Positions 38,616-63,435 of a DNA stretch of 63,435 bases are shown here, one piece after another. Source of the stretch: Candidatus Magasanikbacteria bacterium CG11_big_fil_rev_8_21_14_0_20_39_34 (lineage in GTDB: Bacteria > Patescibacteriota > Patescibacteriia > Magasanikbacterales > UBA922); contig PCWN01000008.1 in NCBI GenBank assembly GCA_002787355.1, positions 4 to 63,438 of the forward strand, written 5' to 3'. The notes below the pieces were generated by a model that saw nothing but the letters and a program-made list of their open reading frames with translations, had not been told where the DNA came from and searched no databases. Position 1 is the first letter of the stretch. Each line of letters opens with the position of its first letter. The position numbers and the translations under genes were made by a program.

Positions 38616-40400
38616 TTAGTGCAAATTTTTTTCAATTGTTTCAACCCTTTCTACAGTTTGAACCCAAAGAATTTCTTTTTCGGATAGAAACTCTTCGAGT
38701 TCCTGATGTCTTTCACTTTTTTCCCTGGAATATTCTGTAGGATGTTTTTCAAACCAATGAAGAATTTTTTGTTTCTCCATTCGGAAAGACTCCATTTCTT
38801 CTTCTAATTTTTGTAGAGCCCTTTTTTCTTTTCGCAGTTCAAGTTGAAGTGCTTTGCGTTCATTTACTGGTGTTGACGCTACCACCTCATTCTTTTCTTC
38901 TCCCACTTCTTCGTCATGTAGATGTTTCTTGAGATGATACACATACTCTTCAAAATTATGTCTATAACGGAGTACCTTTCCTTTTCCAACCTCAATAATT
39001 GCATCCGCAACCGTATTTACAAATGCACGATTATGTGAAACAAACAAAAGTGTTACATTACAGTTTTGTAATGCAACTGCAAGGGACTCAACCGTTTCAA
39101 AATCCAAATGGTTCGTAGGTTCGTCGAGAAGGAGAACTTCATTTTTTTGCAAAAGTAATCCTGCCAGACACAGCCGTGCCTTTTCTCCCCCACTCAAAAG
39201 TGAAATGGGCTTCAATACATCATCACCCCGAAAAAGAAAGTTCCCTGCCATTTTGAGAATCTCCTCTTGTTTTGTTCCGGAAAGGGCTACTCGTTCCAAA
39301 TACTTTTGTACCTGTTCCTCTCCTTTGAGCATAGAGGCAACATGCTGTGAGTAATATCCAATATGTATATCATGAGAAAAACGAAAATTCCCCTTAAGTG
39401 GAGCTATTTCTTCTGTAAGTGTCTTTAAGAATGTAGATTTTCCCTGTCCATTGTCACCCAAAATGGCTATGTGTTCTCCACGATCCACTTCAAAGGTGAT
39501 ATCTTTTGCAACCACTTTATCGCCATACCCAATGTGAAGATCCTCTACACGCAACGCAATCCCCTTTTTATCAGCTACACGCGGGATTTGAATACGCGTA
39601 GTACTCATGGGATGCGCTATATCTATAGTCTTCAGCTTCTGGATTTGTTTTGCTTTGGATTGTGCTTGTGAGGCCTTAGAAGCCTTTGCACTAAAACGAT
39701 CCACAAAAGACTGAAGATGTTGTTTTTCCTTTATGATTTTTTTATTAAACCGTTTCGCCATTTCTATCTGCTCTTCTTTGTATTCCAAGTATTCATCCAA
39801 GGGTCTTGGGTACAATGTTATTTTTCCCTGTTCAATTTCTAAAGTTTCTTTACATGTTTTTCTCAAAAATTCACGATCGTGGGAAATAAGCAAAAAAGTT
39901 CCTCGATACGAATGTAAAAAATCTTCCAGCAGGAGCAATGTAGATAAATCCAAATAGTTTGTTGGTTCATCCAAAAGGAGAATATTTGGATCTGCCAAAA
40001 GCATGGAAATAAGTTTTACACGCATTTGATATCCTCCAGCAAGGGATGCAATGTTTTTTTCCAAAAGTTCATTTTTAATCTGAAATTTTCCTGCCATTTT
40101 TGAGCACTCCCATGGTTCTTTTCCAGAAATTCGAAGCAAAAAATCCATCACCGTTTCATCTGGCAAAAAAAGATCATGCTGCGTAAGATACCCTATTCGT
40201 GTATAGTCTGGGATGAGAATTTCTCCGGAATCTTTTTCTTCTTCTCCCATGATCATTTTAAAAAGGGTGGATTTCCCAGCTCCGTTTCTTCCTATGACAG
40301 CTATTTTTTGTTTATCTACCACCGTCAAACTTGCCTTTTCAAAAAGGATACGCTGCCCGTAGGTCTTATTCAGATTGTTAATTTGTAGCAAAGTAGACAT
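38616..40400 (-). CDS. ABC-F family ATPase
   Basis: Two ABC domains (GRNGAGKS, GDNGQGKS, LLLDEPTN twice), no TMs, C-terminal coiled coil. Confidence 0.93.
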   Translation of the reverse strand: MSTLLQINNLNKTYGQRILFEKASLTVVDKQKIAVIGRNGAGKSTLFKMIMGEEEKDSGEILIPDYTRIGYLTQHDLFLPDETVMDFLLRISGKEPWECSKMAGKFQIKNELLEKNIASLAGGYQMRVKLISMLLADPNILLLDEPTNYLDLSTLLLLEDFLHSYRGTFLLISHDREFLRKTCKETLEIEQGKITLYPRPLDEYLEYKEEQIEMAKRFNKKIIKEKQHLQSFVDRFSAKASKASQAQSKAKQIQKLKTIDIAHPMSTTRIQIPRVADKKGIALRVEDLHIGYGDKVVAKDITFEVDRGEHIAILGDNGQGKSTFLKTLTEEIAPLKGNFRFSHDIHIGYYSQHVASMLKGEEQVQKYLERVALSGTKQEEILKMAGNFLFRGDDVLKPISLLSGGEKARLCLAGLLLQKNEVLLLDEPTNHLDFETVESLAVALQNCNVTLLFVSHNRAFVNTVADAIIEVGKGKVLRYRHNFEEYVYHLKKHLHDEEVGEEKNEVVASTPVNERKALQLELRKEKRALQKLEEEMESFRMEKQKILHWFEKHPTEYSREKSERHQELEEFLSEKEILWVQTVERVETIEKNLH

Positions 40401-40452
40401 ACCGCTCTATTCTAGCAAAGATATCTCTTTAAATAAAGTTTTTATTCTAAAT

Positions 40453-40481
40453 GCAAAAAACCCTCTTGTGGGTTTTTTGTT
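40453..40481 (-). terminator. Terminator of the GC-rich islet gene
   Basis: CAAAAAACCC-tcttgt-GGGTTTTTTG. Confidence 0.7.
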
Positions 40482-40557
40482 CTGATATGGACTCCATTTT
40501 TGAAGAACATATTGGAAGTTTGGTGGGTGTGTTGATAAGGTGGAGTTGGTGAGTGGG

Positions 40558-40797
40558 CTAGCGAGTACGGTGACGAGTCCCCGCACTCCGAATCTGATCC
40601 TCAAAGTGTTCAGGCCTCCTCGTGAAGACCATCAGAGTCCCACCGTTGGATGTCCTGAAGGTGAAGACATGCGTCTGCCCATCACCACAGGTGCTCCTCT
40701 GTTCACCATGCGCGATCTGGGCATCGCTTAGCCCTACGATCGCAGCCGGGAGCGTCCTCTCTCGACGCCCCTGATGATCGACGTCACTTCTTGGCAC
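40558..40797 (-). CDS. GC-rich orphan small protein (79 aa)
   Basis: AAGGAGG 7 nt before GTG 40797. Upstream TTGACT-17-TAAAAT (40879-40851) and a downstream terminator. Two 60-nt lines counted at 58% and 67% GC. Confidence 0.6.
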   Translation of the reverse strand: MPRSDVDHQGRRERTLPAAIVGLSDAQIAHGEQRSTCGDGQTHVFTFRTSNGGTLMVFTRRPEHFEDQIRSAGTRHRTR

Positions 40798-40939
40798 GGG
40801 AGTGCCTCCTTGCATCCGGTTGGTGGGGTATGAACCCCGAATGTGCCAAGATTTTATATTATTTTAGGAAAAAAGTCAATATAAACATGATTGTATGACT
40901 CTAAAATGTATGTTATTATTCAACTGAAAAAATAGAGCT

Positions 40940-41899
40940 ATGCAAAAAAAAGAACTTGAACAATGGGTAGATACTATCTGTCAAAAAACAGGTTTTATAA
41001 AAGAAAAACCCCTAAAATGGGGTACTTTTTACCGTGATGATAACTATAGAAATGCTATCTATCTTGGAAAATATGAGGGGAAAGATGCTGTCCTCAAAGC
41101 ATACGACGACCCCAGAAAACCAGATGAACCAATTGCTTTGCAATATTTCAATGATCACAACCATAACCCCCATCTCCTTGCTCCTCAAATTTATACCTTT
41201 GATAGAGAAACTGCAGAAAGAGGGTTTTTTATAATGGAAAAATTACCAAATGATGCGACTCAAATATCAAAGAATAATAAATTACAATTTTTAAAAATAT
41301 TTCAAGAATATAAAAAATTTTTTCCAAAAACACCACACCGAAAACTTTTTCCAGAAGAAGAGCTTCCCTCCCATCAATTTCATATTGCACGCATTTCCAG
41401 ATGGTTTGAAATGGCAAAGAAAAAACACGATACGGATTTTCCTATGGAAAGGTTTCTTCCTCTTTATCAAAAAAGTTTATCTCTTATTGAAAAAGAATTT
41501 GAAGAAAGACCAAAATATTGGTGCCATGGACATTTTAAAAATGAAGAAGTTTTTTTTAGTGACTCAAAGAATGCCTATTATCTTTTAGACTTTGCACATG
41601 TTCACATGTTTCCTCTTGGATACGAAGAAGCTTTCATTGTTTGGGCAGATTGTCTTATGAATGGAGACTACTCCACTTCCTACATGGAATGGAAAAAAGA
41701 AATTGATACCTGGAAAGCGCTTCTTGTCTCTTCTCTTCAAGAAGAAGGTATACCCCATGCAGAAGAGCTTTTTGATGCCAGTATGCTCGAGAGATGTCTT
41801 GGAACCATACTTGCAGATATAGCAAGTTCAGATAAACCAGAAAAACAAAAATATTATCTTCATCTCTTTTGCTACCTCGAAGAGCTCCTTCAATCCTAA
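40940..41899 (+). CDS. Aminoglycoside-phosphotransferase/kinase-like protein
   Basis: AVLK, FIMEKL, WCHGHFKNEEV, LLDFAH; the Brenner-motif Asp is replaced by His. Confidence 0.65.
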   Translation: MQKKELEQWVDTICQKTGFIKEKPLKWGTFYRDDNYRNAIYLGKYEGKDAVLKAYDDPRKPDEPIALQYFNDHNHNPHLLAPQIYTFDRETAERGFFIMEKLPNDATQISKNNKLQFLKIFQEYKKFFPKTPHRKLFPEEELPSHQFHIARISRWFEMAKKKHDTDFPMERFLPLYQKSLSLIEKEFEERPKYWCHGHFKNEEVFFSDSKNAYYLLDFAHVHMFPLGYEEAFIVWADCLMNGDYSTSYMEWKKEIDTWKALLVSSLQEEGIPHAEELFDASMLERCLGTILADIASSDKPEKQKYYLHLFCYLEELLQS

Positions 41900-62413: not shown

Positions 62414-62551
62414 TCTCTACATACCAGTGTAATGCACTGATATTCACAGATTGATTTGCCCAGGCGTACGATGGGTATGCACGCCTTGGGGCTTGGGGGG
62501 TGTCACGTCGCGGGAAACGACGTGACGAAAGGTGGGGGGAGGACTACTCGG

Positions 62552-63435
<884 letters not shown>

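Follow-up and report, generated by a model that had tools for sequence, protein, structure and literature searches.

A stretch of 63,435 nucleotides from Candidatus Magasanikbacteria bacterium CG11_big_fil_rev_8_21_14_0_20_39_34 (contig PCWN01000008.1, positions 4 to 63,438 of the forward strand; this whole stretch is called the window) holds on its minus strand, at 40455-40879, a short GC-rich unit, most likely an autonomous gene whose small orphan protein is made on the bacterium's own ribosomes and which belongs to an undescribed class of gene cassettes with fast turnover. We infer the transcription and translation of this unit, and any role of its protein or of its 3' tail, from the sequence. 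The genome (G000; 1.18 Mb, 38.8% GC, 99% complete) contains a genome-wide class of ~70-80 GC-rich cassettes of common build, and the unit is a member of it: like the class, it has a GC-rich body flanked by AT-rich DNA, a Shine-Dalgarno (SD) sequence 4-9 nt before an open reading frame (ORF) that spans the islet, and a tail that begins within about 20 nt of the stop codon.

Elements of the minus-strand unit

The unit at 40455-40879 holds all of its elements in the expected order and spacing. A first, sequence-only reading of the window had described a promoter, a hairpin, an AAGGAGG, a 79-residue ORF, a C/A-rich tail and an AT-rich terminator, and every one of these was located on the minus strand:

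40851..40879, minus strand: sigma-70-type promoter TTGACT-17-TAAAAT, 10 of 12 consensus matches
40825..40838, minus strand: 5' hairpin GGGGTTCATACCCC, GGGGU-UCAU-ACCCC, ~6 nt from the predicted 5' end
40805..40811, minus strand: SD sequence AAGGAGG, 7 nt before the GTG at 40797
40558..40797, minus strand: 79-codon ORF for a putative orphan protein, from GTG (40797) to TAG (40560-40558)
40505..40557, minus strand: C/A-rich, G-poor tail CCCACTCACCAACTCCACC...CACACCCACC, 53 nt, beginning 0 nt past the stop
40479..40516, minus strand: AT-rich hairpin in the interval between tail and terminator, predicted from the minimum-free-energy fold
40454..40479, minus strand: A-tract, 10-bp hairpin and U-tract, with the inverted repeat CAAAAAACCC/GGGTTTTTTG at 40454-40463 and 40470-40479
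40789..40851, no strand assigned: 9-bp inverted repeat TCTTGGCAC / GTGCCAAGA, linking the -10/start-site region with the GTG start codon

The GC content of the unit stands out from its surroundings as first described: segments of 200 nt reach 0.535 (40500-40699) and 0.59 (40600-40799) with flanks of 0.31-0.41 on both sides, against a genome-wide mean of 0.388 (sd 0.063) for segments of that length, and the jump from ~33% to 54-59% GC comes immediately past the -10 box. Transcription is predicted to start at ~40844, the usual 7-nt distance from the -10 box; the region has three promoter-like sites as compared to 1.3 +/- 1.1 in shuffled sequence, a count that is unremarkable by itself. The 3' arm of the 5' hairpin extends into a CCCACC at 40827-40822, and the AAGGAGG is complementary to the CCTCCTT at the 16S rRNA 3' end of the same genome. 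The 79-codon ORF covers 0.70 of the island; an alternative in-frame ATG at 40815, which has no SD, would give 85 residues (40558-40815 in the ORF listing). Counted from the TAG, 56 nt of tail comprise 24 C, 18 A, 12 T and only 2 G.

The A-tract, hairpin and U-tract at 40454-40479 probably form an intrinsic terminator that works in both directions. A consensus terminator scan called 0 sites in the region, because the stem has just three G-C pairs and the U-run lies inside the stem. The 9-bp inverted repeat probably does not form a stem in the main RNA, since a start near 40844 leaves most of its 5' arm untranscribed. An assembly chimera is ruled out, because both GC/AT junctions are spanned without a single difference by contigs of other sequencing runs (X5 at 39996-40698 and 40699-41231, X6 at 40270-40609, X8 at 40372-40719). 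Short low-depth contigs of four DNA runs (X5, X6, X8 and X11, which may share one sampling campaign) are identical to the window over the islet, with no variants. None of the listed runs containing the stretch is recorded as RNA, which has no bearing on expression.

GC-rich cassettes, Shine-Dalgarno use and the CCCACC tail

Defined as at least 200 bp at 55% GC or more, 83 GC islands are found in the genome; together they make up 50.6 kb, they are mostly unique in sequence, and nearly each coincides with a single open frame. The GC content of the ORFs delivered by a crude ORF caller is bimodal, with 72 of 1129 at 50% GC or above, and many of these GC-rich ORFs are strongly periodic, with a GC content at third codon positions (GC3) of 0.65-0.87. 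When 66 island frames were scanned with Pfam, families were found in a few (PBP1a, GDSL lipase, Metallophos, a dioxygenase N-domain, a methyltransferase, MopE repeats with FGE-sulfatase, and thrombospondin type 3 (TSP3) repeats) and the remaining frames had no family. Of 77 islands analysed, 36 have an SD-led ORF and a CCCAC/CCACC tail together on one strand. The "chosen" strand of an island is picked by these same features and only the association test is unbiased; over 154 island-orientations it gives an odds ratio of 10 for SD and tail on the same strand (p 2e-9). A strong native-type promoter (at least 10 of 12 matches) was detected for 19 of the 77 islands. The proposal that islets of this design recur through the genome, with SD, C-rich tail and native promoter together, thus holds for the islets and for the pairing of SD with tail, but a strong promoter was detected for only a minority of them.

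Use of the SD sequence distinguishes the cassettes from the native genes. GC-rich ORFs alone have a peak of SD 4-mers, at -15 to -8; ahead of native ORFs the profile is flat. Where the start is unambiguous, GGAGG or AGGAG precedes 4 of the 17 ORFs in the GC-rich group and 5 of the 255 in the native group, against chance rates inside gene bodies of 3.1% and 1.9%, respectively. SD frequency in native genes thus equals chance, without a positional peak, and the impression that most neighbours of the unit lack an SD turns out to be true of the whole genome. Upstream of native starts the GC content instead falls to ~25%. Leaderless translation as a general cause of the missing SDs was rejected, there being no -10-like peak before native starts. 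The 16S rRNA ends in GGATCACCTCCTTTCT, a canonical anti-SD with CCUCC kept, and the 41 tRNAs include readers of G/C-ending codons (Leu-CAG, Arg-GCG/CCT/TCG, Pro-GGG, Ala-GGC, Thr-CGT/GGT, Glu-CTC, Gln-CTG and Lys-CTT). The cell's own anti-SD and its tRNAs for such codons would suffice for translating the cassettes at home. Among the tRNA calls, ARAGORN's tRNA-Glu(ttc) at C8:56874-56971 is unusually long at 98 nt, which may reflect an intron, an insertion or a false call. SD-independent translation with a retained anti-SD is likewise known from the Bacteroidota, where the anti-SD is masked. The likeness lies in native genes without SD enrichment, AU-rich starts and a retained 16S CCUCC; the difference is that here a minority gene class carries strong SDs.

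The tail is the second mark that sets the cassettes apart. CCCACC occurs within 60 nt past the stop of 28 of 72 GC-rich ORFs as compared to 3 of 1057 native ORFs, and its density is 7.1/kb in GC-rich tails, 0.59/kb in GC-rich gene bodies and 0.02/kb in native tails. The motif is strand-specific, with the antisense GTGGG in 1 of 72 tails, and the excess of C over G in the 60 nt past the stop is +0.127 for GC-rich and -0.006 for native ORFs (p 2.6e-18). The motif is also anchored to the stop: among 28 genes with a frame assigned purely from periodicity, 15 have their first CCCAC or CCACC no more than 10 nt from the stop, where ~4% would be expected, and 20 have it no more than 20 nt away. The tail probably acts in recognition or stabilisation, in connection with translation termination. 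A Rho-dependent terminator (rut site) was considered for the C-rich, G-poor tract. It is unlikely because the Rho RNA-binding domain (PF07497) was not found in the 99%-complete genome, the same search detecting it in 9 of 14 control genomes. At many cassette 3' ends the CCCACC is followed by a GC-rich hairpin, often with CCCAC in its loop, and then by an A-run rather than a U-run (e.g. C8:43561-43590, C4:131100-131160, C8:40380-40440 and C10 near 5573); by sequence these ends are not canonical intrinsic terminators on either strand.

The exact double-CCCACC motif is not family-wide. Over 40 family genomes it exceeds a reversed-pattern control in G000 (16 vs 3), weakly in the same-genus G002 (13 vs 7), and in no others. 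In G023, of another genus, a 320-codon ORF with 60% GC and a GC3 of 0.80 is followed after 5 nt by CCCACC..CCCACC CCCACCCCCCAATCCCACC and then by AT-rich DNA (C2 ~119360-119385, locus L090), and the design is therefore not limited to the genus of G000.

Put together, these elements would work as follows. The native RNA polymerase would initiate at the TTGACT-17-TAAAAT promoter and produce a GC-rich message of ~390 nt with a small 5' hairpin; the cell's own ribosomes would start at the GTG by pairing of AAGGAGG with the 16S anti-SD, a route that the AU-rich native genes would not use; translation would stop at the TAG, right where the CCCAC-rich, G-poor tail begins; and the AT-rich hairpin, followed by the A-tract/hairpin/U-tract terminator, would end the unit before a separately promoted ABC-F gene. 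A stronger version, in which the GC-rich cassettes form a separate message class with its own handling, being the sole SD-started genes here and having a CCCACC tail that is read by some factor, is considered improbable. Such a factor could be an RNA-binding protein, a specialised termination state of the ribosome, a recombination system that swaps bodies, or, at its boldest, a route that delivers messages or products to the host.

A number of further islets were noted in passing. The small islets C3:36151-36486, C7:57575-57983 and C4:240325-240704 appear to encode Cys-motif (zinc-ribbon-like) or very basic microproteins, with an SD before and a CCCACC tail after the ORF as read by eye. The end of the window (62415-63435; C11:62418-64267, and on to C11:65298-67202) enters a block of ~2 kb at 69% GC, with 100-bp segments up to 80%, that holds an internally repetitive 546-551-residue frame without a Pfam match and has a run of N just past the window. 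The block is followed by a 635-residue gene of 65% GC with a TSP3 repeat, and the repeats resemble those of the MopE/FGE gene at C4:378363-381119. At C9:57547-57874 a non-periodic GC-rich islet with long minus-strand C-runs lies just downstream of the 5S rRNA gene (C9:57951-58057, minus strand).

Coding status and rival readings of the unit

The neighbours of the unit are a 319-residue gene without an NCBIfam match and, downstream, a gene of the ABC-F family:

38616..40417, minus strand: ABC-F gene, ribosomal-protection-like (NF000355, 453 bits against a cut-off of 380), together with a putative extended -10 of its own

The 319-residue gene adjoins the ABC-F gene in none of the five relatives searched. 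In G001, of the same genus, the ABC-F orthologue is 55% identical, and directly upstream of it on the same strand lies an islet of ~300 nt at 61-66% GC. This islet begins with an extended -10 TGTTAGAAT and GC-rich sequence at once, continues with GGGAGG-4-ATG and a Cys-rich ORF of ~80 residues with a GC3 of 0.73, and ends with TAA, a C/A-rich tail (CCCCACC and CCCACC), an AT-rich hairpin at the position equivalent to that of 40479-40516 in the target, and a terminator. The DNA of the two cassette bodies is not similar: 39 of 300 shuffles reach the same score or better. It thus appears that slot and framework persist and that the body has been replaced or has diverged past recognition. G002 and six other-genus relatives with an ABC-F orthologue have no sharp islet in the slot; the upstream contexts of the ABC-F gene differ among relatives and no empty site is definable. 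The contents of cassette slots turn over quickly between relatives. If the cassettes were indeed handled separately as outlined above, the target and its G001 counterpart would be a snapshot of body swapping between a fixed promoter and a fixed tail, which is given the same low probability as that handling itself.

In favour of the 79-codon frame being read, the best single argument is that the tail starts 0 nt past the TAG of the SD-led frame, the last stops of the two remaining frames being 43 and 74 nt upstream. The predicted protein of 79 residues is basic and hydrophilic (pI 11.0, 12 Arg, 0 Lys) without a hydrophobic segment. A single-sequence AlphaFold2 model gives it four or five strands and a C-terminal helix, with a predicted local distance difference test score (pLDDT) of 57.9 and a predicted template modelling score (pTM) of 0.43, and looks more protein-like than that of a single control, one opposite-strand frame of the islet (pLDDT 41.8, pTM 0.19). 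Foldseek of this low-confidence model against the PDB gave no match at E <= 0.001, and the top score of 0.80 in the ESM Atlas is uninformative.

A substantial set of observations weighs against the frame being coding. The GC content of its three codon positions is flat at 0.57/0.54/0.58, without codon periodicity (GC3 > GC1 > GC2 does not hold). A codon model trained on 28 periodic GC-rich genes of this genome gives it -0.09 per codon, below the 5th percentile (+0.03) of true 80-codon chunks, with the antisense frame no worse at -0.05. Its length is not significant, since 394 of 2000 mononucleotide shuffles of the islet reach an open frame of 99 codons. The ESM recognition value of 1920 is under the level attained by 91% of known families, and the exact ORF is absent from a protein collection of 5.8 billion clusters. 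HMMER searches of 1.84 billion representative proteins yielded no true homologue, and there is none in 40 relatives, no paralogue in the genome, and none in the ABC-F-upstream regions of seven relatives. The proteins of the target and G001 slots are unrelated (BLASTP E 0.33), so that purifying selection on the protein cannot be shown. The alignment score of 34 between the target and G001 tails, reached by 1 of 2000 shuffles, is barely above that of the best non-syntenic G000 tail (30).

Coding of the frame is thus not proven, because codon periodicity and relatives are both lacking. The codon-usage model cannot decide the coding status, because small Cys-motif cassettes score near 0 too: three with evident Cys motifs score about 0 or lower in their best frame, a rough benchmark in that two were entered out of frame, and several other small Cys-motif cassettes are likewise without coding periodicity. 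Gene callers may never have called the ORF, since it is absent in its exact form from the cluster collection. A second small cassette, clearly periodic, at C4:186992-187318 is also without a relative in 40 family genomes.

The main rival reading is that the unit makes a non-coding or regulatory RNA, acting as a small RNA, a sponge or a structured RNA, with the 79-codon frame arising only from the high GC content. RNA genes classically show up as GC-rich islands when the rest of a genome is AT-rich, and the unit resembles such islands in its sharp GC peak of a few hundred bases. The lack of codon periodicity, the low codon-model score, an open frame no longer than chance allows and the absence of protein relatives are all as this reading would have them. 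A first folding z of -3.7 also seemed to favour it, but that fold mixed AT-rich flanks with the GC-rich core and is superseded. The GC-rich body alone gives a modest z of -1.5, within the range of -0.4 to -4.6 spanned by clearly coding GC-rich cassettes (twelve native gene windows have a mean of 0.0). A search of the target with the covariance models of Rfam 15 found no family at E <= 1; the sub-threshold matches to SpF51 (21.8 bits vs 50) and rivX (15.9 vs 100) are chance matches, both on the plus strand of the terminator. ARAGORN found nothing at the islet, and the genes for RNase P RNA (C3:221-632) and transfer-messenger RNA (tmRNA; C11:71252-71647, Infernal 117.9 bits) lie elsewhere. The islet has no DNA similarity in 40 relatives and its body is unlike that of the G001 cassette in the same slot. 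Most islands of this genome are protein-coding, and a non-coding RNA would account neither for a perfect 7-nt SD properly spaced from a start codon nor for a class motif that begins exactly at the stop of that frame. On balance a non-coding RNA is an unlikely but serious contender. Two observations on the RNA gene set were made along the way: ARAGORN gave 0 tmRNA genes genome-wide though Infernal detects the one above, and the small bacterial signal recognition particle (SRP) RNA model RF00169 had no match at E <= 1 in the 99%-complete genome, the long SRP model not having been searched genome-wide.

Recent capture of a foreign gene or fragment from a high-GC donor, possibly the host, would place the unit behind a native promoter with the donor's ribosome-binding site and codons kept, and it might now be decaying. 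MopE/FGE-sulfatase and TSP3 repeats, which some of the larger islets carry, are typical of Myxococcota-like bacteria. The GC3 of the target is 0.60, against a native mode of 0.25-0.35; its flat codon statistics would suit a decaying fragment, and the SD would arrive with the donor's 5' untranslated region. Patescibacteria are AT-rich and the known hosts of members of the candidate phyla radiation (CPR) are GC-rich, according to a 2026 bioRxiv preprint (10.64898/2026.06.21.733656). The search for a donor was nevertheless negative in the 1.84 billion representative proteins, GTDB genomes, JGI metagenomes, IMG/VR, phages and plasmids, and the ORF found nothing in IMG/VR, the phage and plasmid collections, PHROGs, NCBIfam, PADLOC or Pfam; a word search of the protein collection gave no match. 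Three sets of candidate matches were rejected. Seven HMMER matches at E <= 0.001 all fall on long proteins built of repeats, from unrelated families (RCC1, Ig/PKD, AIR9 and others), and do not represent homology, a single-repeat match of ~26 bits having been summed across up to 32 repeats. A JGI metagenome match falls in a frame antisense to a real gene, and a Solirubrobacterales match among the GTDB genomes is off-frame within an ABC ATPase gene. Unrelated islets, moreover, have the stop-anchored CCCACC tail in common, which diverse donors would not supply; GC richness tracks the edges of the unit from transcription start to tail; and an equivalent cassette occupies the slot in a genome whose ABC-F protein is just 55% identical. 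Recent capture is thus rated as rather remote.

Very slightly less probable still is that the unit is a leader or attenuator of the ABC-F gene, that is, a ribosome-sensing unit controlling read-through into it. Short upstream ORFs are known to attenuate vmlR, msr and vga, whose leaders likewise comprise a promoter, an upstream ORF and a terminator directly before a ribosomal-protection-like ABC-F gene. The unit lies immediately upstream of the ABC-F gene on the same strand with a terminator in between, the ABC-F protein matches NF000355 above the cut-off, and an equivalent element precedes the G001 orthologue. Known leaders encode short peptides, however, and the ORF here has 79 codons; the same build recurs at dozens of unrelated sites in the genome and not just ahead of ABC-F; no sharp islet occupies the slot in seven other relatives that have the orthologue (G002 and the six of other genera); and the fold offers no obvious anti-terminator pairing. 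The ABC-F gene also has what appears to be its own promoter downstream of the terminator, an extended -10 TGCTAGAAT at 40417-40409 that ends 8 nt before the ATG. In G001 a corresponding extended -10 TGTATGAT (locus L102 ~1483-1510) also ends 8 nt before the ATG, a spacing that suggests a leaderless or near-leaderless ABC-F mRNA in both genomes.

The mechanism favoured by the sequence-only reading, a message made by the CPR cell and meant for translation in a high-GC host cell, is the least probable of all: the class does use SDs and GC-rich codons where native genes use neither, the common tail could act as an address label, and nothing that reading had named as telling against it was found (no near-identical high-GC donor has come to light, and further islets of the design exist), but the cell's own anti-SD and tRNA set make a second cell superfluous, several class members are the bacterium's own ordinary cell-envelope enzymes, e.g. 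PBP1a, no RNA-export machinery or precedent has been identified, and nothing examined bears on transfer. The descriptive pattern of islets, SD and tail therefore stands, and the host-translation mechanism attached to it is without evidence and unneeded.

Likeness to known systems and significance

The reading of the unit as a small autonomous gene in a class of cassettes recalls two known systems. Phage morons and similar autonomous promoter-ORF-terminator inserts are likewise single small genes with their own promoter and terminator and a deviant composition, placed between unrelated genes and variable among relatives. The cassette differs from these in lacking a prophage setting and any match to PHROGs, IMG/VR or the phage collection, and in belonging to dozens of dispersed units with a common stop-anchored CCCACC tail and a class-specific SD. 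An integron gene cassette is a promoterless ORF followed at once by an attC recombination hairpin and placed in an array next to the integrase gene. The likeness here is a short conserved element right at the stop, often with a hairpin next, and slots whose contents differ when the 3' element is alike; the units differ in that each has its own promoter and stands singly, outside any array, no search having been made for attC core sites or an integrase gene (intI). Among the texts returned by full-text literature searches there was no description of such cassettes.

CPR bacteria are thought to live on other cells, and the genes that mediate this association are mostly unknown orphans. The genome of this bacterium has ~70-80 genes that are compositionally and mechanistically distinct from the rest, many of them small orphans, and three marks of the class are readable from the sequence alone: codons rich in GC, an SD where the genome otherwise has none, and a CCCACC tail anchored to the stop. 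The last of these is a new 3' signal that can be tested. If the marks reflect dedicated handling, they would offer a way to pick fast-evolving accessory or interaction genes from the genomes of uncultured CPR bacteria, as well as a natural test of whether a CPR ribosome uses its anti-SD.

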